A stretch of DNA of 64,000 bases from Eledone cirrhosa (lineage: Eukaryota): contig OZ024740.1 of assembly GCA_964016885.1 (NCBI GenBank), positions 329,034,001-329,098,000 of the forward strand. Direction: 5' to 3'. Shown here piece after piece: positions 1-50,725 of the stretch (its first letter is position 1; the number at the start of each line of letters is the position of its first letter). Below the pieces are notes generated by a model. It did no database searches. It was not told where the DNA came from and saw nothing but the letters and a program-made list of their open reading frames with translations. Made by a program: the position numbers and the translations under genes.

Positions 1-1368
1 AGATACTTAATTGTATATCAATAATCATAGAGTTTTTGAAATAATCCGCGATGTTGTTCGCCAGGCAACAATAATCAAATTATTTATATATACTCACTCG
101 ATGAGACAAACTATTTTTTCTTGGATTAGTGTGAAGTTCTTAGATATAGACGGATGACAACAATTCACGAAGAAAGCAAAAGGGATTGATTGATAAAAAT
201 ACATAACTACCTACACCACGTGGTGGTTTCTAATGGACTACATTTTTCTATTGCAATTGCAGTCGCAAATGCAGAGTGAACTGTGATTACATAAGTGATC
301 CTAGTTTGATCACATTTCTGTCAATAGAACTATTCCCAGATGGAGCATGCTTGTTAAAATGCCGCTCCCAGTCCATTGTATTCACCCTGTTTCGCCCAGC
401 AGTCACTCACCTATAGAGGATGTCCCCGTAGCACTATCAAAGCGAGAACGAAAGCTCTCAACTAGTTTGTAAATAAATTCATAAACAAAGTGTGAAAAGA
501 GTTATACTCATACTGTTTTTGAAATTAACCAGGCCGCAACATAAATCGAATGAATTACAATTAATCCCCACTCAATGAGGCAAGAGATAGTTCTTGAATC
601 TGAGTGGATTCATTATATATATGTTATTTGAAATGTCGTCCTTACGTAAACAAACGAATGAATAGTCAAGCACATATAACTAATCGTTTTGAAAATCGGG
701 ATGCGTACCACCGATGACGGAAAATGTAGATGGATGTGCTAAGAAAGAATAGAAGTCTGCATCTCGCAGATGCTGGCGTATTTTGTTAAATATTACCCTA
801 ACGACTCACTGGCTATTAACTGTTTTATTTAGAAGATTTCAAGGCTATAGGCAGAATTGTTACTGGCTTAAGAACGAATTTGAAACAATGTTTGTGTCAC
901 ACGAAAAGTCAAATCTACCGAAATGATTCCGCCGACGGGCCTCGAAATGGAAGTCAACCGTTTTGTGTCTATTTTTACTAATATATGCACCATGCTGATT
1001 TATGCAGCATATTTTGCCCCGCTATTACAAGTTTGCTGTTATAAATATATTAACATTTTGTATTTGTTTATCAATTTAGAATGCTAGTCATTGGCAATTA
1101 AAAATAATTACTGTATTCGTAACACAATGTTTGAACATGTTGACGTTTTTCATTTAAAATCATTACAGAAGAAATAAAATGGAATAAAGTGGAATGATGA
1201 ATGGAATAGCATTCTGATTTATGCTTCAGAATGAGTTAATAGGTAAATAACTAAAGAATGGATTTTCAACAATACCGATGAAAAAGTTCTTAATATTCCT
1301 ACCGACTAAAAGGCAAATTACATTTTGCTCACGAGAATATGACATGTAGTAAAATAGAATATGTATGC

Positions 1369-1803
<435 letters not shown>

Positions 1804-4281
1804 CGCACGCATACGCGCTCACACATATATAAATATATATATACACATAATTTGTTAATGCAAAAAAGAAACCAAATAATGAAAGTTCAGAAACAAACAA
1901 AAATAATCAAAGAAAATGTTTTTGAAAGTGTGGGATTCAAAAGAATTCTGTCTTCAGAAAGGTTAGAGTATGATAAATCAACTTAAAAATAAATTCAAAA
2001 AAAGTAGAATAAACCATTAAGTGTAAGAGAGAGTGATAAAGATTGAACTGATGAGTTATATGGTTGATCAATAAATATATCACGCAGAAGAGCAATAATA
2101 AACGAATTCTTTCGACCAATAATCATAGTAATAGTTAGATAGAATAGGCAGAGCATTGCAACGTATATGGTGGTATTGATCGAAATCAAGCGATTGCTAG
2201 CGTACAAACTTTGTTCATCCTTCCAATGAATTTTCATTATAACTCGCAAAGATCTATGAGGAATATTTTAAGGAAACTACGATAATAGCGTATAAAATAC
2301 CGTTCAGTTTAAGTAGTTTTGGGGAATAGCTGATATATCTTTTATAATAAAATAAAAAAAAGTCTTCCAGATTACATTTAACTACAATAAGGATGTGGAT
2401 ATAGATGGAATGTGAAAAGACCCGCTACTTAAAAAAAATACGCCTGAGAGAAATTAAATCCCAAAAGCAGAAAATCATTCATAAAAAAATCAATCCTGAT
2501 ATCAGAACATAGCGAAAACGATTGAACAAGAATCGAAAAGCACGTTAATATCATGGCATTACACTGCTCGTTTTCCAGTCGAAAACATATAGGTTCTTTG
2601 TGCTCTGTAAAAAGTAAAAGGAAAAGAAGTTAATCTTAATATTATCACTGGTGTCTTGAACCAAATCATGTATTTTCAGCCAATCTATATATCCACCTTA
2701 ATGCATAGTTATTTCTTCTATATCTTACTACTGAATCGATGTTTAACTACAACTATTATATCTAACCTTTAATCTACGTACATTCTTGAATTTGTGTTTA
2801 AATCGAATGGATATTAATCCTATTCCCCACTCTTACAGTGAATGCAGTATGACTCATCAACTCTTACAAATGATTGTTGACTTACACATACCAGACTAAA
2901 TGTATTTTAATGTTGCATACGTTCACATTTCACTGACGAATATATTCATTAATATTTCTATAAAATACATTATTTTATATATGCATTCGCTTGAATCGAA
3001 CATCAGGAAATAAGCTCCTAGTAGAGGTTTGGACAATCTCGCTCTTATTCTGTATCGGTAGAGATTATGTGTATAATAACATATGCTTCTTAGTGTTTGG
3101 CGAAGATTTAAAAAAAAAATCGAAACCCAAAACTAACAATATGGCATAGTAATTGACATTTACTATAAATCAAGACACTTCGTTCAGAGTAAATATAATC
3201 TAAGTGAATGTTTCTTGTAAATGAATGCAAATTGTAAACAAAGATAAATAGTAAGAATGTGTGACGCATGAGAGAGAAATGCATCAAACATTGAAGAGAA
3301 TTCCGTAATTAACAGGTTCGTATGATTACCAAACAAATACTATATTTCCATGTAGTGGATTTGTGACAGATCTACCCGACTTTCAGCTCAATTTCGTGGA
3401 TTGTTCGAGATGTAATTCTTGGAAACAAACATAACACATTGCCGTTGAAAGACGGTGAACAGCTGATCGTACCTACGTACTTATATCTATCTTAGATATT
3501 AGATAAAATACACAAACTTCGTCTTAGTTCATCGATAAATTAATTATAATATAATTCACAAGAGTGTAGATAAGTTCGATATAAAACACTTTCAATTATA
3601 ATGAATAAATGGAAGAATTACTGAAATCTGTAATAAAATGTAATAAAGCGAATACAAACATACGCCTACATAGATTTGGCCAAACCAGTAATGGACATTT
3701 CACATACACATAAACACACTTTTGCATATATCTTGCACATATCAATGTAATCGAACTTGTCGAACTCGTCTACATACAGTCAAATTTTATATGGCTTTGT
3801 TCTTGAATAATTTACTACTTTAAATTTGAAATAAATTTATTCATTAGCGTAATTGTTTTCACGTATGAATCAGCAAGTTGTATATTAGAGAGATCGGTTC
3901 CAAGAAAATGCAATTTGTTAGTTATTGAATATTTTCCGTATTGATTCTGATGCTGTTAGTGTAATTGTCTATTTTTGCAACTGCATTATCAAAAGGATTG
4001 GTATAATTCATTAACCAACAACGCTAAAATTCAGGCTGTAAAATTCTATATTCATATTTGTTTATTTGTTAATAAACGTATACAAAGGTACAAAATATGC
4101 GTATTCATAAAAGCCAAAGAAAATTTAAAATGTATATTTATGGTTAGGAAATCGTATAAAGAAAGATGCTTCTTGGAAAATCATTTTAGAATTAAACACA
4201 TACACACACATATAAACACACAAAACACAGACATATGGGCATACAGAGCCATACACATATATATACATACATAAAAACATA

Positions 4282-32142: not shown

Positions 32143-33514
32143 CAATATAGACAGTTTTATAGATAAATAGATTTGACATACCGTTCAACATCGACTTGTA
32201 TTTGAAAAAGTTGATTTGGCAGTGAAAAATTGTAAACAGAAAGAAAGAAAGAAAGAAAGAAAGAAGGAAAGAAAGAAAGAAAACGAAGAAAAAGAAGAAA
32301 AAAGAAGAAATACATGCAACAAAATAGAGAGATGGAAAGATAGATAAAGAGAAGAACTTCATGTAAAGAAACAGAGAGAGATATATAGAGAGAGGAAATA
32401 GATAGAGATAGATATATATAGAGAAAAGTAGGTAGTTGAACATCCGTTGAATGACGTATCAATGATACATTTATTTATTTATTCATTTATTTAGCTCTAG
32501 TATTAATGTAAGGGAGATATATGTGGTTAGGAAAGAAACCAGCCGTTATATAGAGAGAAAAATGAAAAGTAACCAGACATAGGCGAGGCAGAATTTAAAA
32601 ACCCTATGTTTTAATGTAGAAATATTAGTTCGTATAAAAACCAGGCACTATAATGTAAATATCAGTATTCCTGAATGAGACACGTATCTATAATGTGTGA
32701 AAAGTAATGATCTTATGTCTAGTTTTAAAAATTCATATGTTTATATGATAACTACAAACATCGATGTGAATTCACGTGATCAACTCTGCAAACCCCTATT
32801 TCACACGGAGAACATTCTCATTGTGCTATAAAAATTTAAGTATACATATATGTGTATATATACACATATATATAGAGTCTATATTAATTTTAACAATACT
32901 ATTCTTGTCTTTACTCTACATGATTATCTATCAAGCAGAAATAGAGAACAGATTTCAATATATTAATAAAAATATCAGAAACAAAAACAAAAACAAAAAA
33001 TAATAATAATAATAATAATAAAAATAAACAAATAAATAAAATAGAAAACTAAAAAATATTACATATTAAAAATAAAAATATTAAAAATATTAAAAATTAA
33101 AAATATTAAAAAATATTAAAATAATAAAAATAAAAACATAATATGCCACGCAAATCGACCACAAAGATCAACCCTTCAAAATTAATTGACAATATATTGC
33201 CAAGTTCATTATAAGCATCAGAGTCGAAAACAGATAAAGCTAAACATTATTTACCAAATCGCGTCTAGCAGAAATCATTTCAAAAGTTTAGGATGCCCAT
33301 TTGGTCTACATATGTTCTTATATTTAATATAGAAGTTTATCTAGTGTAACGTTTATTCGATATATTTGGAGCATCAACTTTTAGGGTAGTTTAATTTTTC
33401 ATGAAGAATGTTTAAAATAAAAATAAAAATAAAAATAAAAAGAAGAATAAAAAGAAGAAATCGAAAGATTTATCGGCTAGTTTCCCAAATAATTACAAAT
33501 CAAAACTAAATATA

Positions 33515-35746
33515 CTACATTTTAAATTTAAATTTATATTTAAAAGTTGAGTTCAATCTATGTTTGCAGCAACTGAATAAATTTGTCCGTAGATTAAGGG
33601 AATTTTTAGATTTTAGTATAAAGAATATCTCCTCCGCGCAGAGGTCACATGTCTCAGAGGATGAATTAAAAAGAATCCCTCTTGAGACTATATTCCAAGC
33701 CGTCGAATATCTAACGTTATCTTGCCTAAGTTGCCAGAGTACGCCTGATAGTGCTGTTGAAGATTTTTTGCTTGGATCTGTGAAAGAATTCTTGTGGTTA
33801 TTATAGCGAAGTTTAAATTCCGTCGATGTGGAACCGACGTAGTTAAAAGAATTAGAGTCCGTTTTAACATTACAGTTGTATATTATATTTTTAACTAAGC
33901 AGTTGTTATAAGCAGTTGTTATTTAACGGACATTTAGATCTATCTCTACAGTTACATTTGTTAACTTGTATATTATTTATGCTATTATCGCTAGGTTTTA
34001 AGTTCCTATTATTTATTCTATTAATATTTTGTGCTAAATTTTTGGTGGATGAGTAGGTTAATTTTATAGTATGTCTATTGAAAATTGAGTGATACCTATG
34101 TGTTCTAGGGAAGCGATTATCAAGAGCTTTAAAAAATAGTTTAGCGATGTGGGTTTTAATGTTTAGTGAGAAAGGGGGGGGGGGCAAACCATATTATGTT
34201 CCTAGTTCTATTTCTTTTTTGGCTTTTGGAATTATTGTAATGCTTTCTATTATAGTTGTTAAGGTTGTGGCCGTAATTAAAATAGTTGTTATTTTGTTTA
34301 GTTTGTCTATCATTATCTATGTACATAATCTTATCACTATATCCTGCTCTAGCTAATGCTTCATTGTAGTACTGGGCTTTTTCGTCGAAAATCTTTCTAT
34401 TAGACGAGATTCTAGAGATACGTTTTTGAACAGAGTTTACTATAGTGTTTTTGACAGATCTGGGGTGGTTAGAGTTAAAGCTGACATAGTTTAAGTTTTC
34501 ATTCAACTTGTGAAATGGATAGTGAAGACATGTGTTGAGATTTAATGTTATATCTAGGAAATTGACTATTCTATGGTTGTTCTCAATTTCTATTTTTAGA
34601 TTAAAGTAATTAAAAAATTGTGTAATTTGTTTTCTTTTTCTATTTAGTTCAGAGTTATTATTATCAATAAGTAAAAGCATGTCATCTCTATATAAACCTC
34701 CGGTAGTACCAGGTATTTTCCTATGTAGCGAATTGATTAAAAATAAGCCCACAAGGTCAGTTACCTGAGCTGAGTCGGATGATCCCATAGTAATGTCAAA
34801 ATTGCTATCTCTATCTGCTCTGGTCCATAGTTGGTCATTAAATTCTATCAATGTTTTCCTAGCCGATAATATAATGTGCATTTCATTGCTAGTTAGGTCT
34901 GTATGTTTGAATGCGTAATTTAGTGCCTTATTTAGTAGATTAGGGGTAATAGAAGAATAATAGTTAGCAATATCAAGTTGAATAAACTTATTATTATTGT
35001 TATATTTAATTTGCTTAAACCACTCAACAACCTCTCCAGTTCCCTTCCACAAGCTCAGGTTAGGTAAACAATCCAAGTTTTTAATTTGCTGTATCACCCT
35101 GTCAAGAATGTTTTTGCTTAATTTGCCCAGGTCCGATTTTGATGGTGCGATCAATCTAACTGGCAAGTCATTTTCAAAATTCCTTTTGTGATCTTTCATA
35201 TTGATCTTCGGTTTCCTGGGCACGAAAGGTTGTGTTCTGTTCTCAATTTCCAACTCGTGCATTATACAAGATGCTTCAACATTCATTTTCTCAAGCTCGG
35301 CCTTATCTGTTACCTTGTACTTTTTCCTCAGTTCCTTCAGTATGAGGCCATTATACATGTCTTTCTGCACTCCATAGAGGTTGTTGGTCTTGTCAGATTT
35401 CACCAAGATCTTCTCAGTTTTCTCTAAGCTCTCAATATTATCCTTAATGCCTTTCAGATATTCCTGGCCTTTGAAGTTTCTCTTGAATTTGACCCCTTGT
35501 ATGATAGAAATTATATCGTTTTCAAAGTCAGATAAAAGTTTGTTAGGGGGTGGATTTCTTTTAGATTTGAAAACTTTGTTTAAGTCCGGGACATTTTCAT
35601 TTATATTAGATTTATCAAAGTGGAATGCTCGCCACCTGATTCTCCTTATAAAAGAGTCAGATTTATCTATTAATTGTTTTATAAAGTCTTTGTTTCTAGG
35701 TAGAGGAAATGTCTTTTAAAGAGGAAGTAATCTTAAAGAATTCCAT
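33515..35746 (-). pseudogene. PLE RT + GIY-YIG endonuclease ORF (about 738 aa when three indels are repaired)
   Basis: MEFFKITSSLKDI.LP..FIRRIRWRA..VKSDKTNNLY..QLDIANYY..TMGSSDSAQV..YRDD..NFLDITLNL..SNHP..IIWF.PPFS..CNC..CPL..CL..IIY..YVG..CDLC..CCKH. Breaks: +1 near 35708, C-homopolymer near 34180, 13-bp duplication near 33900. Confidence 0.9.
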
Positions 35747-35893
35747 TTTTTCAGTTATAATATAAAGCGCTCAACAGTATTGGAGCAAGATATCAGTTAT
35801 AAATATTTACTAGTTGTAACCCAACAATTTAAATATAACTTTCCATGTATCTTGCTCCAATACTGTTGAGCGCTTTATATTATAACTGAAAAA

Positions 35894-37724
35894 ATGGAAT
35901 TCTTTAAGATTACTTCCTCTTTAAAAGACATACCTCTACATAGCTTGAGACATAGCTTGAGAAAATGAATGTTGAAGCATCTTGTATAATGCACGAGTTG
36001 GAAATTGAGAACAGAACACAACCTTTCGTGCCCAGGAAACCGAAGATCAATATGAAAGATCACAAAAGGAATTTTGAAAATGACTTGCCAGTTAGATTGA
36101 TCGCACCATCAAAATCGGACCTGGGCAAATTAAGCAAAAACATTCTTGACAGGGTGATACAGCAAATTAAAAACTTGGATTGTTTACCTAACCTGAGCTT
36201 GTGGAAGGGAACTGGAGAGGTTGTTGAGTGGTTTAAGCAAATTAAATATAACAATAATAATAAGTTTATTCAACTTGATATTGCTAACTATTATTCTTCT
36301 ATTACCCCTAATCTACTAAATAAGGCACTAAATTACGCATTCAAACATACAGACCTAACTAGCAATGAAATGCACATTATATTATCGGCTAGGAAAACAT
36401 TGATAGAATTTAATGACCAACTATGGACCAGAGCAGATAGAGATAGCAATTTTGACATTACTATGGGATCATCCGACTCAGCTCAGGTAACTGACCTTGT
36501 GGGCTTATTTTTAATCAATTCGCTACATAGGAAAATACCTGGTACTACCGGAGGTTTATATAGAGATGACATGCTTTTACTTATTGATAATAATAACTCT
36601 GAACTAAATAGAAAAAGAAAACAAATTACACAATTTTTTAATTACTTTAATCTAAAAATAGAAATTGAGAACAACCATAGAATAGTCAATTTCCTAGATA
36701 TAACATTAAATCTCAACACATGTCTTCACTATCCATTTCACAAGTTGAATGAAAACTTAAACTATGTCAGCTTTAACTCTAACCACCCCAGATCTGTCAA
36801 AAACACTATAGTAAACTCTGTTCAAAAACGTATCTCTAGAATCTCGTCTAATAGAAAGATTTTCGACGAAAAAGCCCAGTACTACAATGAAGCATTAGCT
36901 AGAGCAGGATATAGTGATAAGATTATGTACATAGATAATGATAGACAAACTAAACAAAATAACAACTATTTTAATTACGGCCACAACCTTAACAACTATA
37001 ATAGAAAGCATTACAATAATTCCAAAAGCCAAAAAAGAAATAGAACTAGGAACACAATATGGTTTGCCCCCCCCCCCCTTTCTCACTAAACATTAAAACC
37101 CACATCGCTAAACTATTTTTTAAAGCTCTTGATAATCGCTTCCCTAGAACACATAGGTATCACTCAATTTTCAATAGACATACTATAAAATTAACCTACT
37201 CATCCACCAAAAATTTAGCACAAAATATTAATAGAATAAATAATAGGAACTTAAAACCTAGCGATAATAGCATAAATAATATACAAGTTAACAAATGTAA
37301 CTGTAGAGATAGATCTAAATGTCCGTTAAATAACAACTGCTTAGTTAAAAATATAATATACAACTGTAATGTTAAAACGGACTCTAATTCTTTTAACTAC
37401 GTCGGTTCCACATCGACGGAATTTAAACTTCGCTATAATAACCACAAGAATTCTTTCACAGATCCAAGCAAAAAATCTTCAACAGCACTATCAGGCGTAC
37501 TCTGGCAACTTAGGCAAGATAACGTTAGATATTCGACGGCTTGGAATATAGTCTCAAGAGGGATTCCTTTTAATTCATCCTCTGAGACATGTGACCTCTG
37601 CGCGGAGGAGATATTCTTTATACTAAAATCTAAAAATTCCCTTAATCTACGGACAAATTTATTCAGTTGCTGCAAACATAGATTGAACTCAACTTTTAAA
37701 TATAAATTTAAATTTAAAATGTAG
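35894..37724 (+). pseudogene. PLE RT + GIY-YIG ORF with ~400-bp N-terminal deletion and a homopolymer frameshift
   Basis: ORFs 35965-37089 (RT, YRDD) and 37059-37724 (NIIY..YVG, CDLC, CCKH). The deletion junction carries a CATAGCTTGAGA duplication at ~35939-35962. Confidence 0.9.
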
Positions 37725-39108
37725 TATATTTAGTTTTGATTTGTAATTATTTGGGAAACTAGCCGATAAATCTTTCGATTTCTTCTTTTTATTCTTCTTT
37801 TTATTTTTATTTTTATTTTTATTTTAAACATTCTTCATGAAAAATTAAACTACCCTAAAAGTTGATGCTCCAAATATATCGAATAAACGTTACACTAGAT
37901 AAACTTCTATATTAAATATAAGAACATATGTAGACCAAATGGGCATCCTAAACTTTTGAAATGATTTCTGCTAGACGCGATTTGGTAAATAATGTTTAGC
38001 TTTATCTGTTTTCGACTCTGATGCTTATAATGAACTTGGCAATATATTGTCAATTAATTTTGAAGGGTTGATCTTTGTGGTCGATTTGCGTGGCATATTA
38101 TGTTTTTATTTTTATTATTTTAATATTTTTTAATATTTTTAATTTTTAATATTTTTAATATTTTTATTTTTAATATGTAATATTTTTTAGTTTTCTATTT
38201 TATTTATTTGTTTATTTTTATTATTATTATTATTATTATTTTTTGTTTTTGTTTTTGTTTCTGATATTTTTATTAATATATTGAAATCTGTTCTCTATTT
38301 CTGCTTGATAGATAATCATGTAGAGTAAAGACAAGAATAGTATTGTTAAAATTAATATAGACTCTATATATATGTGTATATATACACATATATGTATACT
38401 TAAATTTTTATAGCACAATGAGAATGTTCTCCGTGTGAAATAGGGGTTTGCAGAGTTGATCACGTGAATTCACATCGATGTTTGTAGTTATCATATAAAC
38501 ATATGAATTTTTAAAACTAGACATAAGATCATTACTTTTCACACATTATAGATACGTGTCTCATTCAGGAATACTGATATTTACATTATAGTGCCTGGTT
38601 TTTATACGAACTAATATTTCTACATTAAAACATAGGGTTTTTAAATTCTGCCTCGCCTATGTCTGGTTACTTTTCATTTTTCTCTCTATATAACGGCTGG
38701 TTTCTTTCCTAACCACATATATCTCCCTTACATTAATACTAGAGCTAAATAAATGAATAAATAAATAAATGTATCATTGATACGTCATTCAACGGATGTT
38801 CAACTACCTACTTTTCTCTATATATATCTATCTCTATCTATTTCCTCTCTCTATATATCTCTCTCTGTTTCTTTACATGAAGTTCTTCTCTTTATCTATC
38901 TTTCCATCTCTCTATTTTGTTGCATGCATTTCTTCTTTTTTCTTCTTTTTCTTCGTTTTCTTTCTTTCTTTCCTTCTTTCTTTCTTTCCTTCTTTCTTTC
39001 TTTCTTTCTTTCTGTTTACAATTTTTCACTGCCAAATCAACTTTTTCAAATACAAGTCGATGTTGAACGGTATGTCAAATCTATTTATCTATAAAACTGT
39101 CTATATTG

Positions 39109-39174: not shown

Positions 39175-39307
39175 GATATGGTTTTATAAATATAGTTTCC
39201 ATTTATTTAATATCGTAAATATACTCCAAATACTTGTTGAGTGCTTTTATATCAGTTATAAATATTTACTAGTTGTAACCCAACAATTTAAATATAACTT
39301 TCCATAT

Positions 39308-40225
39308 ACAGGAGGGCCCTGTAGAAACAGTAGACAGCTTCTGCTACCTAGGTGACCGAATTAGCAACGGAGGTGGGTGCTCAGAAAGTACAATAACTAG
39401 GGTAAGAACGGGATGGAAGAAGTTTAGGGAACTACTACCACTGCTAGCTGCAAAAGGCTTCTCCCTCAGAATGAAAGGCAGACTGTATGATGCGTGTATC
39501 CGAACAGCGATGTTGCATGGTAGTGAGACCTGGGCGCTGAAGGTGGAAGACTTACGTAGATTAGAGAGAAACGAAGCCTGCATGCTCCGATGGATGTGTA
39601 ACAGTAATATACGTGAACGACAAAGCATAAATGAATTGAGAGAGAGACTGAGCATAAGAGGAATCAAATGCTGCGTGCAGGAGAGGCGGTTACGCTGGTA
39701 TGGACATGTGATGCGTATGAAGGATGACAGCTGCATAAAAAGGTGCAGAGCACTAGAAGTTGATGGAAACCGCGGAGTGGGGAGACCCAAGATGACTTGG
39801 GATGAGGTGATAAAAGCCGACCTTACCCAACTACACCTCTCAAAGTCAATGACACACGACCGTGACTTCTGGCGTCACGCAGTAATACAGGGTACCCGAC
39901 CTCCCATGGGTACATGCTGAAGCATATAAACAATATGCCCCCCCCCCCCCCCCACCGCAAGGTGGTCGTGGAGGTGCCACGGCAAAAAAGCACCCAGCCC
40001 ACACTGTAAAGTGGACGTGTAGGCGCCACGAAAAAGCACCCAGCACTCACTGTAAATGAGGTTGGTGTTAGGAAGGGCATCCAGCTGTAGAAATCAAGCC
40101 AGATCAGTTCCTGTATGAGCAAGGCATGGTCAGCCGACCAGACACTGCCCACAACAGGACAACCCGTCTAACCCATGCTAGCGTGGAAGAACGGACGTAA
40201 AACGGTGATGATGATGATGATGATG

Positions 40226-42928: not shown

Positions 42929-43029
42929 GTTGTTGTTGTTTCAGCTCACACCTATGCAGGTTTAGCTGGCCTCCTCCAATGTATATTTCGCTGAAGGTGT
43001 CATGGGTGATTTAATGATAGGGACCCCAG

Positions 43030-43317
<288 letters not shown>

Positions 43318-43386
43318 GGGTAAACATTGATGCAATTCAATTCAACCATTCAACGTACTTTTTCCACATAGGAGTGACAGAGTAAT

Positions 43387-43527
43387 TATCGAATAAGGAA
43401 AAGCGAAGTAGTTTCAGATATTCAAGTCTTTTTAATAATAATGCTGTGATATATTGAAATATATATCACAGCATTATTATTAAAAAGACTTGAACATCTG
43501 AAACTACTTCGCTTTTCCTTATTCGAT
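43387..43527. repeat. Near-perfect ~140-bp palindrome
   Basis: TATCGAATAAGGAAAAGCGAAGTAGTTTCAGA...GTGATATAT / ATATATCAC...TCTGAAACTACTTCGCTTTTCCTTATTCGATA. Confidence 0.92.
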
Positions 43528-44169
43528 ATATATATATATATATATATTGGAAAATGTGTGTAATCCTTGGTACAGTTAGGTATATTATGACAGGGGGGGT
43601 AGAACAAAATAAATGGCTTCACTTGTGTTTTCAACAAATTTATTTTGTTCACAAAATCCAAAAATAATTTTTTTCCGGATTAGAAAAAAATTTTCTTAAA
43701 AATTTTTTTTTATAAATTAAGTTGTTGGTTGTTGGTTAGGTCTTAGGAGTTCTTGGTTAACGTAGGAGGTATTGTTTCGTTTTTAGAAAGACTTTTCACG
43801 CTGAGGTGCGCTTGTCAAACTGATGTGTATGTGGTGTGTTGTTCTATATATAAGGATTTAACATGTCTGTGGTGTGGTGGGTTTTTTTTTCTCCCCCTTT
43901 AATAAGTGTAGTGGTGTAGGTGTGTTGAAAAAATGTTAATAGCAGTAATGAGTTGAGACAGTGAGTAGGGTTGGGTGGGGAGAAATGTAGCAAGTGCGGC
44001 CTGCCTCGGTCATTCTCGAAAAATTCCTTTATTCAGGGGAAAAAGCTTTTAGTATTACTTTGTGTCGAGAATGGTCATAGGCAAACCGCACCTGCCAAGC
44101 TTGTAAACAATTATTTTTTTCTGAAGAATTTTTCTACGCCCATCCCAAAATTAGTCCTTTGTTCAACAC

Positions 44170-44451
44170 ACACATATGTGCGTATATACGTACATACACA
44201 CTCGGGCATATGTAGGAATATATAGGCACACACCATCAATCACACACCCATGTACATATACATCCACATACATACATAAAAACATATAAAGACACATATA
44301 AAACACATATACACATTCGTACACACACGAATATGTACTCATACCTCCACATGGGTATATATATATATACATACATACATATACATATACACACATAAAG
44401 ATACATAACTAAATATACATATATACACATACACGCACACATACACACACA

Positions 44452-44508
<57 letters not shown>

Positions 44509-44590
44509 GTCCGTATATATACATCTGTTCACACATACATGCATACACACACACACATACACATATATATATATATATATATAGAGGCAT

Positions 44591-44671
<81 letters not shown>

Positions 44672-44846
44672 AACACATACAGACACATACACACATATAC
44701 ATACATATACACATATATATCTATATCTATATATATATACACATATATATATTTATATATATATATATATATACATACATACACATACCCATACACATAC
44801 AAATACATACATACACACATACATATATACACATACATATACATAC

Positions 44847-44891
<45 letters not shown>

Positions 44892-45133
44892 CATACACAC
44901 ACATACATACACATATATATATATATGTGTACACACAAGCACATAAAGACACATATATACATATATATATATATATATATACATACATATACATACATCT
45001 ACATACATACATACATATACACATATAGAAACATACATATATGTACACACATACATACATATATGCACATACATACACACACACACATATATAGATACAT
45101 ACATATACATACACACACATATAAACATATATC

Positions 45134-45165
<32 letters not shown>

Positions 45166-45220
45166 CAAATATACACATAGATACATATACATATACATAT
45201 ATATATACACACATACACAC

Positions 45221-45251
<31 letters not shown>

Positions 45252-45362
45252 TACAAACATACATACATCCATACATATATATACACACACATACACACAC
45301 CCACATACATATATACCCACACGTACATACATCCATACATACCTACACACATATGTGTGTGT
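44170..45362. repeat. Degenerate mixed (TA)/(CA) low-complexity tract inside the PLE 3' UTR
   Basis: Direct reading; source of the many CVY/HTI pseudo-ORFs. Confidence 0.95.
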
Positions 45363-45442
45363 CTCACCGTTCACTCAGATATTCATGTGTACACATAAGA
45401 AGAGGGGGGTAGTGAAATGGAATTTTACCTCCGAGTGTTAAT

Positions 45443-47763
45443 TCATTTTTTCGTGTTCAGTAGTGGTTTAAATTTTTCAATGAAGAATTCTTCTTTATAT
45501 CTGCGGAAATGTTCGTTATCCGACCATATCTTGAAGAAAGGGAAGATTGTGAATTTTCCCTCCCGCATGATGCAAAGTGTGCGCTACATGTGGTATTTCT
45601 GACTGTGGGGTCTTTAATTTGTTGTTTATGTACCCGGACTCTATCATGTAGTCCCGTTCCGGTTTCCCCAATGTAATACTCTTTACACTGTGGACATGTT
45701 GCGCAATATATTAGGTTTTTTGTTTTGCAGTTCATGTTTGCATTGACCTTGAAAATATCATGGTTTTTGAAGGACAACTGTTTGCCCTCTTCGATGAGTT
45801 CACAGGTTCCACATCTAGGATCCCCGCATTTCGTCACTTGCATTGATTCCATGTTGGTCGTAAATTTTGCCTTGGTAATTAGTTGTTTAAGGTTGGGTGC
45901 TTGGCGTCTGCTATAAATTATCTGTGTGTTTTTTAAGAGTGCATTCATTTTGGTAGATTGCTGTAGAATCGGGAGATACTGCTTAGCAGTTTTCACAATG
46001 TTGATGTTCCCTGGGTTGTGAGTGATGACAAAAGAGAGAGCAGGGTTTTCTTTTTTATGTTGTGGGTTTGGTTTTCTCAGTGTTGTTATTGGGATGTTCT
46101 TAGCCTTGGAGATGGCTTCGTTGATGAGTTTCATCGGGTATTCTTGTTTTTAAAGGAATTTTTTCAGGTCACATAATCTTTTTTCTTGTAGTACGGGGTG
46201 TGTTGCTATAGTGCAGATGCGCCTTGCCATGTTGAAGGGAATGTTCCTTTTCGTATGTGAGGGGTGTGCTGACGGGAAATTTAAGTATTGGTGTGTGTCA
46301 GTGGGTTTGCAAAATAGGTCCGTTATGATATTTTCCCCTTCTTTAATGATGAGGATATCTAGAAAGGGCAGTTGCTTTTCGTTACATTCCATAGTGAATT
46401 GTATAGCTTCATGAAGCCTGTTTAAGATCGAATAAAATGTTTGTAGGTCTGTTTGGCTTCTGTTCCAGAAGATGAAGCAGTCATCTAGGTAACGTTTCCA
46501 GTTTTTATTAAAGTAGAAGGCGAAGTCGTGACTGAATGTTATCGGTAGTTGGGAATATAATTTTGCCTCTAAGTGACCCATAACGAGCGTTGCATATGTA
46601 GGGGCCACTTTGGTACCCATGGCTGTTCCTTTTATTTGTAGATAAAGTTCGTTGTCAAAGAGGAAGTGGTTGTTTTCCAATACTAATTTAAGTCCTTCCA
46701 AGATGAATTCTTTGGGGAATCTTTCTGAAATGTGACTTGAGTGTTTTGTAATCCAGAAGTCCACAGCTTCAATCCCTAGGTCGTGTGGCATGTTAGTGTA
46801 CAGGCTTATTACATCAAAACTGACTAGGATTGTATCCTGGTGTACTTTTTGGGGGATATAGTTAAGGAATTCCATATCATCTCTGATGTAGCTTGGAACT
46901 TTTTTACATAGGGGTTTGAGTATGATGTCTAATAGGTTGCTTAGACGTTGTGTGCTTGAGGCTGGGCCAGCAATAATGGGGCGTAATTTTAAGTCTGTCG
47001 GTTTTGGAGCTTCGATGTATGATGTATTTTTCCCTTTTATGTTGTTTTGGATTTCTATGGATTTGTGAATTTTTGGTAATCCATAGAAATTGCTGGTTTT
47101 CATTTCGAAGTTGGTTAGGTAATCTACTTCTTTTGGTGTTAGGTTGTGTTGGTACTTTGTTGTTAGTTTGCCTATTTGGTTCCTCGATTTCCTTTCTTCG
47201 TTTTTAGTGATTTTCCTGTAGAAGTTTTCGTCATTCAAGTGTGCTAGAACCATATCTTTGTAGTGGTTTATGTCCATGATGACGATTGCTCCACCTTTGT
47301 CCGCTTCTTTTATTATTATTGAGGAATCCCTTTGTAGCTTGTTCAATGCTAGTAGTTGGTCTGTAGGGATGTTGCGTTTGTGTTTCGTCTCGGCCGTATT
47401 TGTACGTGCCGATCGGCGAAGGCAGGTTATGTACTCCTCCATGTATTTATCTCTATTTAGCGGGGGTGTGAAGATGTTTTTGTTTTTCACCAGTGATTCT
47501 TCCTCGTATTGTACACCCTGGAAGAATTCTCCTAAGCGTAATTTTCGACAGTATTCTTCTGTGTCTTTTATAACATCGGCTGTATCTGTTTCGGAGTGGG
47601 AGTGAACTTCAGTCCATTTTCTAACAGTTGTATTTCTGGTTGTGTTAATTTCTTGGCTGTATATTGATTATTTTTGGTTCGATTGGTTCTTTCTCGTCAG
47701 GTGCCACTTGAAAGGTGGTGCTTTTTTCTTTTTATCTTTCATTTGGTGCGAGGCCCCTAGTCC
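45443..47763 (-). pseudogene. Neptune-type PLE RT-GIY-YIG ORF, frameshifted
   Basis: PKIINI..LT..EI.LLENGLKFTPTP..RKLRL.EFF..FTPP..IIIKEADKGG..FYGLPKIHK..SFDVISLYTN..GTAMGT..RYLDD..LPFLD..KPTD..AHP, linker CGDPRCGTC, NLIYCATCPQCKEYYIGET, ending ..FKPLLN. Several small indels (~47660, ~47590, ~46145, ~45560). Confidence 0.92.
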
Positions 47764-48881
47764 TAAAAAATGGGTGCCATTTGGGATAGGGTGTTTCTGT
47801 TGTGGTGAAACCTTTGGCCCGCCGGAACTTCATGCCGGTAACTGGTTGAGCGATAGACTCTTTCGTGGTCGTTGCTGTATGGGGGTCTGGTTCTTCTGTT
47901 GTTTCGTTCAGTATTCATGTGTCTTTGATTTTGTCTCCGGTAATTGTTCTTGGTGTTATGGCAGTGGTTGTATCTGGTTCTGGTGTTGAGTATTGGGTCT
48001 GTATGTAGTTGTGTGTTTGGGGTTACACAATATCTGATTGTTGTTGGTTTATTGTGTGTGGGTGCTTTATTTCTTGTGTTGTTGTATTTTCCTGAGTTCT
48101 GGGGTTTCCTATGGGTTTGTTTTCTGGGTTTTATTTGATCTTTCCCATAGTTATCCTCATATTCTTGAAGCCATTGAGTTCTTGACTCCAAGATTTTCTT
48201 TGATTTTAACTCCTCTCTAGTTGTATCTGTCTGCCATAGGTTAAGGAGTTTTTCACGTACATTGCCGCTGCTTCTTTTGTTTATATCCTCTTGGATGGTG
48301 GAGTCGCATTTTTCAAATTTCTCTTTGAATTTTGGCACTCTTAGGCAGAGTGGGATGATTTCGGTCTCAAGTGTTTGGAGTGCTAGATTTAGTCTTGTTG
48401 CAGTTTCTTCCTTTGATTCCGATGGTATTTCTTTAATTCGGAATTTTCTCGGGAGGATAACTGGTTCCTTGCTACGCCATATTTCGTATGTGTCTGCTAG
48501 GTTTTCACTCCTCAAGGCTTTCCAGTATGCCTGTTTTTTTTTATTTAATAATTGGTTCCAAATGTTTTTCATTTGGTTTCTTTTTCTGTAGGCTTCTTTT
48601 TCTAGATTCAGTTCATTCCATTCTTTGAATGCATTATTGGTGATGGAGTTCTGTTCATGTGTAGCTATTTCAGGGGAAAAGGTTGGTTCTTGTTTTTGTC
48701 GGTCTGTAATTAGTGAATAAAGTTTTTCCCTATAGCTGCGTGTCTGTTGTTCCATTTCTTGTACGGCATTCGTAAGGGAATCATATTTATCTATTATTAT
48801 GGTGAGTTTTTCTGATATTTCCTGTAGTAGTGTCTCCGATTTGAGGGATTCAGTAGAGGATTTTGAACGTGTGTTAGCCAT
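47763..48881 (-). CDS. PLE ORF1, 372 aa (MANTRSK...), helical/coiled-coil-like N-terminal region and basic N/R/H-rich C-terminal tail
   Basis: Uninterrupted ORF between the 5' pLTR and the RT ORF. Heptad-like LLQEISEKLTIIIDKYDSLTNAVQEMEQQ. The first ATG downstream of the pLTR is at 48881. Confidence 0.7.
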   Translation of the reverse strand: MANTRSKSSTESLKSETLLQEISEKLTIIIDKYDSLTNAVQEMEQQTRSYREKLYSLITDRQKQEPTFSPEIATHEQNSITNNAFKEWNELNLEKEAYRKRNQMKNIWNQLLNKKKQAYWKALRSENLADTYEIWRSKEPVILPRKFRIKEIPSESKEETATRLNLALQTLETEIIPLCLRVPKFKEKFEKCDSTIQEDINKRSSGNVREKLLNLWQTDTTREELKSKKILESRTQWLQEYEDNYGKDQIKPRKQTHRKPQNSGKYNNTRNKAPTHNKPTTIRYCVTPNTQLHTDPILNTRTRYNHCHNTKNNYRRQNQRHMNTERNNRRTRPPYSNDHERVYRSTSYRHEVPAGQRFHHNRNTLSQMAPIF

Positions 48882-49145
48882 TCTGTCTTGTACAAGGGGA
48901 TAGAATATTGGAAAATGTGTGTAATCCTTGGTACAGTTAGGTATATTAAGACAGGGGGGAAGAAAAAAATAAATGGCTTCACTTGTGCTTTCAACAAATC
49001 TATTTTCTTCACAAAATCCCAAAAGAATTTTTTTCCGGATTAGAAAAAATTTTTCTCAAAAGTTTTTTTAATAAATTAAGTTATTGGTTGTTGGTTAGGT
49101 CTTATATAAATATACATGAGTGTGTATGACTGTGCATAGAATATT

Positions 49146-49525
49146 ATATTAATAAAAGGAATTCCAACGCTGTCTGATTTACTCGTTTTATTTACAATCC
49201 TTTAAAATTATAATGATATTATAATTAAATAGTATGGTAGAATATTAAATGTTAAATATTTATCGCATTCTTCAGGTTCATATTCAGTGGTGACAGTCGA
49301 GTTTGCAATTTTCAACTGTCAATTTTCAACAGTTGAAAATTGCAAACTTGACTGTCACCACTGAATATGTACCTGAAGATTGCGAAAGCATAAAAGTACT
49401 TGTTCAATAAATATTTAACATTTAATATTCTATCATACAATTTCATTATAATATCATTATAATTTTAAAGGATTGTAAATAAAACGAGTAAATCAGACAA
49501 AGTTGGAATTCCTTTTATTAATATA
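49146..49525. mobile_element. ~380-bp fold-back element with HHR remnants in both arms
   Basis: Arms are reverse complements about ~49324. The right arm has CTGAAGA TTGC GAAA GCAT AAAA GTAC TT GTTCA. Confidence 0.88.
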
Positions 49526-49542
49526 TATATATATATATATAT

Positions 49543-49740
49543 TGGTAAACGGAATAGAAAATGCTGACAAATTGTTCACAGTTGAAAAATGGTTTAATTA
49601 GGAATAAAAGAGTATTAGTGATTGTATGGGTTAGTATTCAGTTGTGGTTTTAAGTTTTTAAGTTTTTACCGGTTGCGCATTTCTAAATGCTTTTCAAAAA
49701 TAATTTTGAGATAGAGTGTCCGTGCTGTTTGCTCTGATCT
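49543..49740 (-). mobile_element. Dispersed ~190-bp repeat (second copy 58055-58235) with HHR-like variant
   Basis: The two copies align along their length, and both adjoin microsatellite-rich sequence. Confidence 0.75.
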
Positions 49741-49764
49741 GATTAGTTTTGGGAATTCTACCTG

Positions 49765-50000
49765 TTTTTATGTTAAAAAAATGGCTCCAGCGTTATTTTT
49801 GTGTTGCAAAAATGCTTGTGGTCAAAACAATTTTGATTGGTCGGTAGAGGTCATGTGAATGAAAAAAGTTGATTTTGCGCCAAGACTGTTTTTATGTTAA
49901 AATGTTAGAAAAGTGGCTCCAGCAAAAATTATTGGTCAAAACAATTTTGATTGGTCGGTAGAGGTCATGTGGATAAAAAATTGGTTTTGCGCCAAGATTG
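49765..50000. repeat. Two-copy tandem repeat (~120 bp)
   Basis: GGTCAAAACAATTTTGATTGGTCGGTAGAGGTCATGTG..TTTTGCGCCAAGA appears twice. Confidence 0.85.
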
Positions 50001-50022
50001 AGAAATGACTCTTTCACAACAA

Positions 50023-50082
<60 letters not shown>

Positions 50083-50154
50083 TAGTAGTAGTAGTAAGGT
50101 GTTCGATGCTGCGACAATAGCCACCAGCGATGTGTGTCAAATGGCTATTAAGAT

Positions 50155-50188
<34 letters not shown>

Positions 50189-50725
50189 ACATACACACAG
50201 CAGAGTCATTCGAAGGTCAAAAGATATTTTTCAGCTTTTGTCTTATACGGAGAAGTGCGTGTGTGTGTGTGTGTATAAGTCTCTTTGTATGTTGATGTAC
50301 GCGTGTGTATGTGTTTGTGTATATATGTGTGCGTGTGTGTGTGTGCGTGTGTGGGTGGACCAGTATTTTTTTCCCCCCTGGTAAAATGGTGTACATTATT
50401 CGATTTTTTCAGTAAAATCGGTTCTCTTAATAGAACATCAACAATCTTAACAATAAAAGGTGTGAAATGATAATGTAGTACATGCATCGATTGGTGTTCT
50501 GTCTTTCTTTCCTTGGAAGAAATCGTCTATGATCAAACCAGGAGAGAGAGGAACTGCGCAAAGTTTGAAATCAACCAAAACAGGTTATGCGTCAGGACGG
50601 TTGTTATACGTCAGGACTTCATAAGTAATTAAGGTTCCTTTGCATATGCCATTTACAAACCCGCATATATATATATATAACTGCATAAGGTTTTGTATTT
50701 ACATAACCATAAATAGTATAACTAA

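Follow-up and report, generated by a model that had tools for sequence, protein, structure and literature searches.

The window considered here is a stretch of 64,000 nucleotides (nt) of the Eledone cirrhosa genome (assembly GCA_964016885.1, contig OZ024740.1, positions 329,034,001 to 329,098,000 of the forward strand). It contains a Penelope-like element (PLE) of Neptune type, and the question that this element raises is how its reverse transcriptase (RT) is translated, since the RT frame follows another open reading frame (ORF) and lacks a start codon. As an earlier note based on the letters alone had described, ORF1 of this copy starts at the ATG at 48881 of the minus strand, on which all parts of the element lie, and encodes 372 amino acids (aa) before ending in CCC ATT TTT TAG. 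The TTTTTTA of this end, at 47770-47764, is part of the sole T6AG within 45300-49200. Directly beyond it a frame without ATG (...FFRTRGLAPNER*KEK...EPKIINI) leads through one TAA into the RT N-terminus. The earlier note had proposed -1 slippage at U UUU UUA, which would require an indel shortly upstream, or +1 slippage at a UUU-UAG shifty stop in the frame as it stands. The letters are confirmed, but within 200 nt the RT region of the copy undergoes two further changes of frame, and from one copy alone programmed recoding cannot be told from decay.

The undamaged arrangement can be read from related copies. A DNA search of the 3.0-Gb genome scored 40 of 183 candidates, all of them 97-100% identical, and 30 loci were aligned, one of which is the window itself. 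The 29 other copies (97-98% identical) all carry an extra base at about 47791, some 20 nt upstream of the T-run, and their ORF1 passes through the run as CAT TTT TTA (His-Phe-Leu). This is the upstream indel that -1 slippage needed, and it yields the predicted ...NGTHFLG...PP. ORF1 of the family is thus 404 aa long (47668..48881), the heptamer U UUU UUA (47764..47770) lies in the X XXY YYZ phase of ORF1, and the RT frame is at -1. All 29 copies also have A at 47734, hence the TAA there is private to the window copy, as had been suspected, and all have an extra base at both ~47659 and ~47588. The 372-aa ORF1 ending at TAG 47765-47763 is therefore real in the window copy, whereas its length, its terminal TAG and the TAA at 47734 are not properties of the family. 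The window element belongs to a Neptune-type Penelope-like family in which two frames overlap, and it is broken: it has four private 1-nt deletions (at ~47791, 47659, 47588 and 45561) and a private stop at 46152, its RT frame is interrupted at 47734, ~47659, ~47588, 46152 and ~45561, and it differs from four longer natural copies by 57-78 substitutions in 3.2-3.5 kb (about 2%).

The junction itself is far better preserved. All 30 aligned copies have TTTTTTAG intact, and an exact pattern search of the genome gave a run of six T's in 45 of 49 matches, with T7 and T5 in two each. The heptamer is in phase and the RT frame at -1 in 29/29 other copies, and the two-frame layout is retained in 25 of them, the four exceptions being private 1-nt indels. 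In 23 of the 29, the distance from the Phe to the end of ORF1 is 33 codons, and the TAA there (47668..47670) lies 32 codons past the A-site Leu; two copies have earlier stops and four have the private indels. The RT frame opens after TGA 47832-47830 and contains no ATG in its overlap with ORF1 (47668..47829, 163 nt in the other copies). Upstream of the heptamer this -1 frame is open for 20 codons only, without Met, in all 29. The first Met in the RT frame usually occurs 165 codons downstream of the heptamer, behind the N-terminal RT motifs; in copy L005, whose ORF1 has 404 aa, it follows the IINxS, GLKF and DKG motifs. From the heptamer, 775-776 codons are open to the end of the endonuclease in 5 of 8 extended copies, which had been chosen for long frames. 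Short-read contigs (four runs from one study, of unspecified kind) span the L005 junction without a gap, so that the frame offset is not an assembly error. The family is accordingly not one continuous ORF, no ATG precedes codon 165 of the RT frame, and T6A is conserved. Copy alignments, pattern search and bridging contigs make the -1 geometry a property of the family and the +1 shifty stop an accident of the window copy. When the overlap of the window family was shuffled with dinucleotides preserved, an in-phase T6 followed by a purine (T6R) arose in 2 of 500 shuffles.

Long fused frames occur in a few loci (L014 in the window family, L140-L143 in another family, C), and a fused subfamily was considered and rejected: the readable cases, among which the L143 junction is not included, trace to single-base changes in A-runs or to variable C-runs. 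The C-run of family C (L137-L143, L152, L153, L156) follows an in-frame ATG and varies in length from 6 to more than 20, and such changes produce fused frames of 1,157-1,181 aa in some copies; the variation could be sequencing error or real slippage. At L005:1791-1830, contigs with loose ends in runs X1, X3 and X4 indicate a related subfamily that shares the T-run and the next few bases and differs on both sides. It could form a 4-bp hairpin about 7 nt downstream, which is mismatched in the window family (family A).

The same arrangement is found well beyond this family. Searches with two diverged ORF1s, from each of which 20 loci were taken, added four families to that of the window in this genome. 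Each of the five has an in-phase TTTTTTA and an ORF1 that overlaps the RT frame at -1. Family B shares only ~35% identity with the window family in ORF1 and ~51% in RT. A metagenome scan (80 of 268 confirmed loci kept) and a genome scan (6 loci) gave 86 further loci, most of them truncated or broken, or else of single-ORF type with a Met of their own. In 13 of the 86 an upstream ORF overlaps the RT at -1 and the element is not of the single-ORF type; L067 and L073 were left out, having short -1 ORFs without a heptamer but with their own Met and a long N-terminus. T TTT TT(A/G) is present in 11 of the 13, the two exceptions being L063, with T TTA AAC, and L116, with only other weak heptamers. 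Together with the five families of this genome, 16 of 18 two-frame junctions have the heptamer in phase, where shuffling of the 16 overlaps gives an expectation of 0.4, and just one T6R out of phase occurs in the kilobase preceding the 16 sites.

Some of these loci deserve separate mention. L063, L065, L068, L083 and L084 form a distant group (~28% RT identity) that also has the -1 overlap; the Zn-finger and the endonuclease are present in L065 and L084, and in L063 a stop directly follows T TTA AAC. In L116 (positions 744-3201) an 819-aa upstream ORF overlaps the RT at -1 without a U6 heptamer, and neither there nor in its relatives L098, L109, L110, L117 and L126 was an endonuclease motif detected. 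Animal Penelope-like elements were also met within bacterial genome assemblies and symbiont protein records (L131-L136; P0045, P0059, P0068, P0096), probably as host contamination.

Protein homologues of ORF1 point to the same heptamer. A profile search identified 750 homologous clusters (50% identity) at E<=0.001; 152 homologues were retrieved, and the 92 of 330-540 aa were taken as full-length-like. Phe-Leu is found within the last 45 residues of 81 of these 92, compared with 3/92 and 6/92 in control windows, and two of the eleven without it have Phe-Phe. The residue preceding Phe is K, E, Q, M or W in none of 82 sequences, the window family included, against a background of 19%, a contrast to which no probability is attached because the sequences are related; it is what would be expected if a U must precede UUU. 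Across 84 ORF1s the two residues F372 and L373 are at least 90% invariant, at a mean column identity of 15%. The heptamer is thus conserved beyond the requirements of the protein. No protein of fused length occurs among the best 120 RT relatives (506-845 aa) or the best 150 ORF1 relatives (at most 706 aa).

The ORF1 product itself is predicted to be helical, probably coiled-coil, over residues ~11-245, followed by a disordered basic tail rich in R, N and Q. In the AlphaFold model the confidence score pLDDT (predicted local distance difference test) is mostly above 85 over residues 11-250 and about 40-50 past 270. Pfam has no family common to more than one of 84 ORF1 members, a sequence search of PDB returned generic coiled coils only, and Foldseek with the model matched nothing in PDB or among viral models at E<=0.001. 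VIA-align gave middling helical matches to generic helical bundles (best Z 8.9, root-mean-square deviation 5.7 over 146 residues). There is no CCHC knuckle in the sequence, no capsid-like match in the fold searches, no esterase match in ORF1 and no ORF1 relative in a scan of viral contigs. The gag-pol-like fusion proposed in the earlier note therefore holds for the layout only.

We consider programmed -1 ribosomal frameshifting at U UUU UUA in the ORF1/RT overlap to be the best reading of these sequences, with a probability of about 0.8. Most ribosomes would complete the 404-aa ORF1, likely an RNA-packaging protein, while a minority would slip back by one base with tRNA-Phe and tRNA-Leu on UUU UUA and go on to synthesise an ORF1-RT-endonuclease fusion of ~1,150 aa, the fraction that slips setting a gag-pol-like ratio of the two products. 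What stimulates the slip is more weakly indicated. It would not be an RNA fold, and in many relatives the part may be played by a ribosome that pauses where ORF1 stops, 11 codons on; in the window family the stop is 32 codons away, so that slippage might be basal or aided by a pause on a lysine run at codons +9 to +14.

Several observations weigh against frameshifting. At three junctions the Leu codon is UUG instead of UUA, and UUG is a weaker eukaryotic shift site. In family C an in-frame ATG stands just before the RT N-terminus. The stem or pseudoknot looked for downstream of the site did not appear on folding: the 60 nt past the site have a z of +1.1 in the window family and fall below -2 in only 1 of 17 junctions, and a finder that recovered 20 of 20 synthetic H-type pseudoknots found none in the 17 junctions. 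Even with 3-bp stems the window family gives no pseudoknot, the fold of a 106-nt stretch at the junction is not significant (z -0.34), and an Rfam scan of 43000-50500 yielded only sub-threshold miRNA-like matches on hairpins and microsatellites. A stem-loop or pseudoknot 5-9 nt downstream was thus not found, in a search confined to local RNA structure. The remaining adverse points concern splicing. TTTTTTAG reads as a good 3' splice acceptor, and this acceptor stands in the same phase in 11 of 16 junctions; in family B a CAG of the same phase lies 14 nt further along, a nearby AG in L060 is matched by a strong donor (8/9), and two NCBI gene models from Mytilus (P0016, P0017) join the ORF1 tail to the RT as if through an intron, omitting the conserved IINxS motif.

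The main rival is a retained intron, the removal of which in some transcripts would link the RT to ORF1, or to an exon with an ATG upstream, while unspliced RNA supplies ORF1. PLEs are known to retain introns (PMC8557442), a G-starting codon follows Phe-Leu in 60 of 81 homologues, and in the window family a 50-nt GT-AG pair (49 nt in the window copy, 47763..47811) would join ORF1 to the RT in frame. Its donor is weak, with 5 of 9 consensus positions, and no equivalent is conserved in the other families. In general the donors compatible with the first AG score 3-5/9 and lie at unrelated distances, and two families have none. The AG itself is absent after the run in 5 of 16 junctions that keep both run and phase, and it is impossible in 21 of 81 proteins; L131 has no YAG within 60 nt. 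Moreover, the run has exactly six T's with no C among them and is still translated as Phe-Leu. The Mytilus joins skip IINxS and land elsewhere, like annotation patches, and are probably predicted introns that bridge a frameshift. Among the contig matches listed from the four short-read runs there is no joint at the candidate intron, a result with no bearing on splicing. An intron, which the earlier note had named as a possible objection, is thus disfavoured by the sequences, and we regard it as unlikely, with some chance still left to it. Separate translation of the RT, by reinitiation, from a non-AUG start or from a shorter transcript, would make the T-run incidental. The ATG of family C and a killifish Neptune described with a separate ATG-started ORF2 (PMC12602865) speak for it, but families A, B, D and E have no Met before the N-terminal RT motifs, family C keeps its in-phase heptamer in spite of the ATG, and 16 of 18 junctions and 81 of 92 proteins would be left without explanation, which makes it very improbable.

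Slippage by the polymerase, adding one U on T6 in some transcripts, would likewise produce a fused message: a single added T fuses the frames, and T7 is seen both in the genomic copies already counted and in minor contigs. Such slippage needs neither a fixed codon phase nor an invariant Leu codon, yet both are kept, and T5 is as common as T7. Six T's are also short for slippage in transcription, and we accord this explanation very little weight. Least credible is that the window copy should be taken as it stands, with +1 slippage at UUU-UAG or plain decay of a single ORF. The ORF1 of this copy does end in TTT TAG and the copy has several private lesions, but the extra upstream base in every other copy puts the TAG out of frame, and the two-frame layout is common to the family and to four more families. 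The +1 shifty stop of the earlier note is refuted, because TAG stands in the ORF1 frame solely in the damaged window copy.

The weakest part of the explanation by -1 frameshifting is the stimulator. Of 81 homologues, 27 have their ORF1 stop exactly 11 codons past the A-site Leu, none at fewer than 10 and 53 at more than 11; the 27 are spread over several branches and share 10% identity in the intervening residues, and 6 of 17 DNA junctions also have the stop at 11 codons. In Escherichia coli reporters, -1 slippage is stimulated in a ribosome that collides with one paused at a stop ahead of it (PMC6815119). We tentatively suggest that Neptune-type elements use a similar, structure-free and collision-driven shift, in which the stop at +11 would be the pause in most lineages and the window family would have swapped in its A-rich lysine run at an equal distance; a leading ribosome paused one footprint downstream would hold the trailing ribosome on U UUU UUA until it slips, and the amount of enzyme made would scale with how many ribosomes are loaded on the RNA of the element. 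This suggestion is a doubtful one, and a number of facts stand against it. The 11-codon label is clustered on the ORF1 tree (11 changes against 22.9 when shuffled), so that the cases are not independent, and no member of the window family's own branch stops at 11, the family itself stopping at +32. L068 and L063 have stops at +2 and +1, basic residues at +9 to +12 are not clearly enriched across all long tails, and the optimum in E. coli is 9 codons, not 11 (PMC6815119).

The run in question (47722..47739) lies at ORF1 codons +9 to +14 past the A-site Leu, where 27 of 30 copies encode KEKKKK, and could be a ribosome pause site or simply a nuclear localisation signal. The window family and its four closest relatives share a run of this basic, A-rich kind at about +7 to +14, and P0003-P0006 and the two Mytilus gene models have a basic one at +7 to +12. 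A periodicity of stop spacing at 11, 21 and 31 codons was considered and is not claimed, as the excess at 31-33 is small (8/81) and was seen post hoc. No natural eukaryotic stop-spaced frameshift site was found in a literature search by listings.

With respect to classification, the motifs of the element are those by which Neptune and Nematis are recognised, whereas its layout, as read from the sequence, departs from their single-ORF description. Neptune and Nematis share with it the N-terminal GLKF and DKG motifs, a CX2-5CxxC linker, a C-terminal GIY-YIG endonuclease, pseudo-LTRs (long terminal repeats) and insertion by (TA)n (PMC8557442). Copy L005 has the PLE-type RT motifs GLKFTPTP, EADKGG, YGLPKIHK and YLDD. 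In the window the RT-Zn-finger-GIY-YIG frame occupies 45443..47770 (Pfam RVT_1, E 2e-9; 775-776 codons from the heptamer in unbroken copies) and includes a CX4CxxC Zn-finger-like linker, CGDPRCGTC (45802..45828), of the type that is typical of Neptune/Nematis by the definition in PMC8557442; CX2-5CxxC linkers are also present in L042, L051, L053, L060, L065, L131. The GIY-YIG region (45595..45717, motif IY...CxxC...YIGET) scores E 0.0012 and 19.5 bits, under the Pfam cut-off of 22.6, but the motif is present and ends the long frame, and PF01541 is found in many close relatives. A quick RT tree of 51 rows separates 10 two-frame from 10 single-ORF, Zn-finger-less loci on opposite sides (SH-aLRT, the approximate likelihood ratio test, 100), with Zn-finger linkers detected on the two-frame side only; it contains no named reference elements, and the family may belong to Neptune or to Nematis. 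No hammerhead was matched by Rfam in 43000-50500, nor was a CTGANGA core present in the 3' part of three copies, although degenerate variants would escape these searches.

The published accounts of related systems resemble this element only in part. Endonuclease-bearing (EN+) canonical PLEs are called single-ORF, with Neptune/Nematis defined by the Zn-finger linker (Craig et al. 2021, PMC8557442), in contrast to the two overlapping frames of all five families here, that of the window included. An extra ORF in Neptune-like elements is already in print: a killifish Neptune has an upstream ORF1 to which no function is assigned, and frameshifting is not mentioned in the available excerpt (PMC12602865), while esterases of Neptune-like elements are mentioned in PMC5408684. 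The window family differs from these in that its ORF1 is a separate ~400-aa, predicted helical protein without esterase match and overlaps the RT at -1 with a conserved heptamer. The Athena and Coprina (Terminon) elements, which lack an endonuclease (EN-) and are located at telomeres, have a coiled-coil ORF1 upstream of the RT and a frameshift between them (PMC8557442, PMC6431247); two ORFs are attributed only to EN-less elements in the excerpt of PMC6431247. The window element differs from them in having an endonuclease, interstitial copies on many chromosomes and no detected pseudoknot. According to the legend of Fig. 1 in PMC8557442, a frameshift with a pseudoknot can set ORF1 apart, and the figure may also mark an optional ORF1 and frameshift for Neptune.

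Outside the PLEs, gag-pol of HIV-1 and of Ty3/gypsy elements is alike in its U_UUU_UUA, the site at which HIV shifts frame, its -1 layout and a likely structural ORF ahead of an enzyme ORF; Penelope is not mentioned in the excerpt of that source (PMC5009743). The window element differs from retroviral gag-pol in having no LTR, protease or integrase, and neither a capsid-like fold nor a stem-loop or pseudoknot 5-9 nt downstream was detected in it. The E. coli collision reporters share a heptamer placed one ribosome-length before a stop without RNA structure, which fits the 27 relatives with 11-codon spacing, but they are synthetic and bacterial, with an optimum nearer the heptamer than the stop at +32 of the window family (PMC6815119). 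The excerpts of PMC3846280, PMC6515669 and bioRxiv 10.64898/2026.07.22.740005 contain nothing on frameshifting in EN+ PLEs. No published description of a conserved heptamer in EN+ PLEs was found, though key PLE literature and Repbase may hold one.

The whole element copy extends over 43526..49104, four other copies aligning from ~49030-49104 to ~43526-43534. Along it follow a pseudo-LTR, ORF1, the RT-endonuclease frame, a microsatellite-rich 3' untranslated region and a second pseudo-LTR, and (TA)n adjoins the 3' end. The 5' pseudo-LTR (48905..49104) repeats the 3' end of the element, with 92.6% identity over 202 nt to the 3' pseudo-LTR (43544..43745), which is placed by this match and by the aligned copies. 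Directly 5' of the element lies a 390-nt self-palindrome (83%; 49141-49530); a similar sequence adjoins copy L163, and it is therefore probably a separate foldback repeat. Elsewhere in the window, a 213-aa frame on the plus strand (39279-39920) appears to resemble the C-terminal portion of a reverse transcriptase of non-LTR (RTE-like) type. At 32238-39001 there is a near-perfect 6.7-kb inverted duplication, with arms of 1672 and 1127 nt at 100%. Two copies of another Penelope-like element, arranged tail-out, make it up, and these contain the RWRA and DKT motifs described for the Hydra clade (PMC8557442).

If frameshifting is indeed the mechanism, a widespread branch of the EN+ PLEs, the sister group of telomerase, would use a gag-pol-like two-protein strategy rather than the usual single ORF. 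The real enzyme would be a fusion of ~1,150 aa, and annotations or biochemical constructs that begin at an internal Met would miss its N-terminus, while the 750 clusters of a large ORF1 family, to which no Pfam family is common, would acquire an identity. With the RNA stimulator absent and the 11-codon spacing of relatives so sharp, these elements would also serve as a natural eukaryotic test of collision-driven programmed frameshifting, for which the window family, with its stop at +32, would provide the contrasting case.

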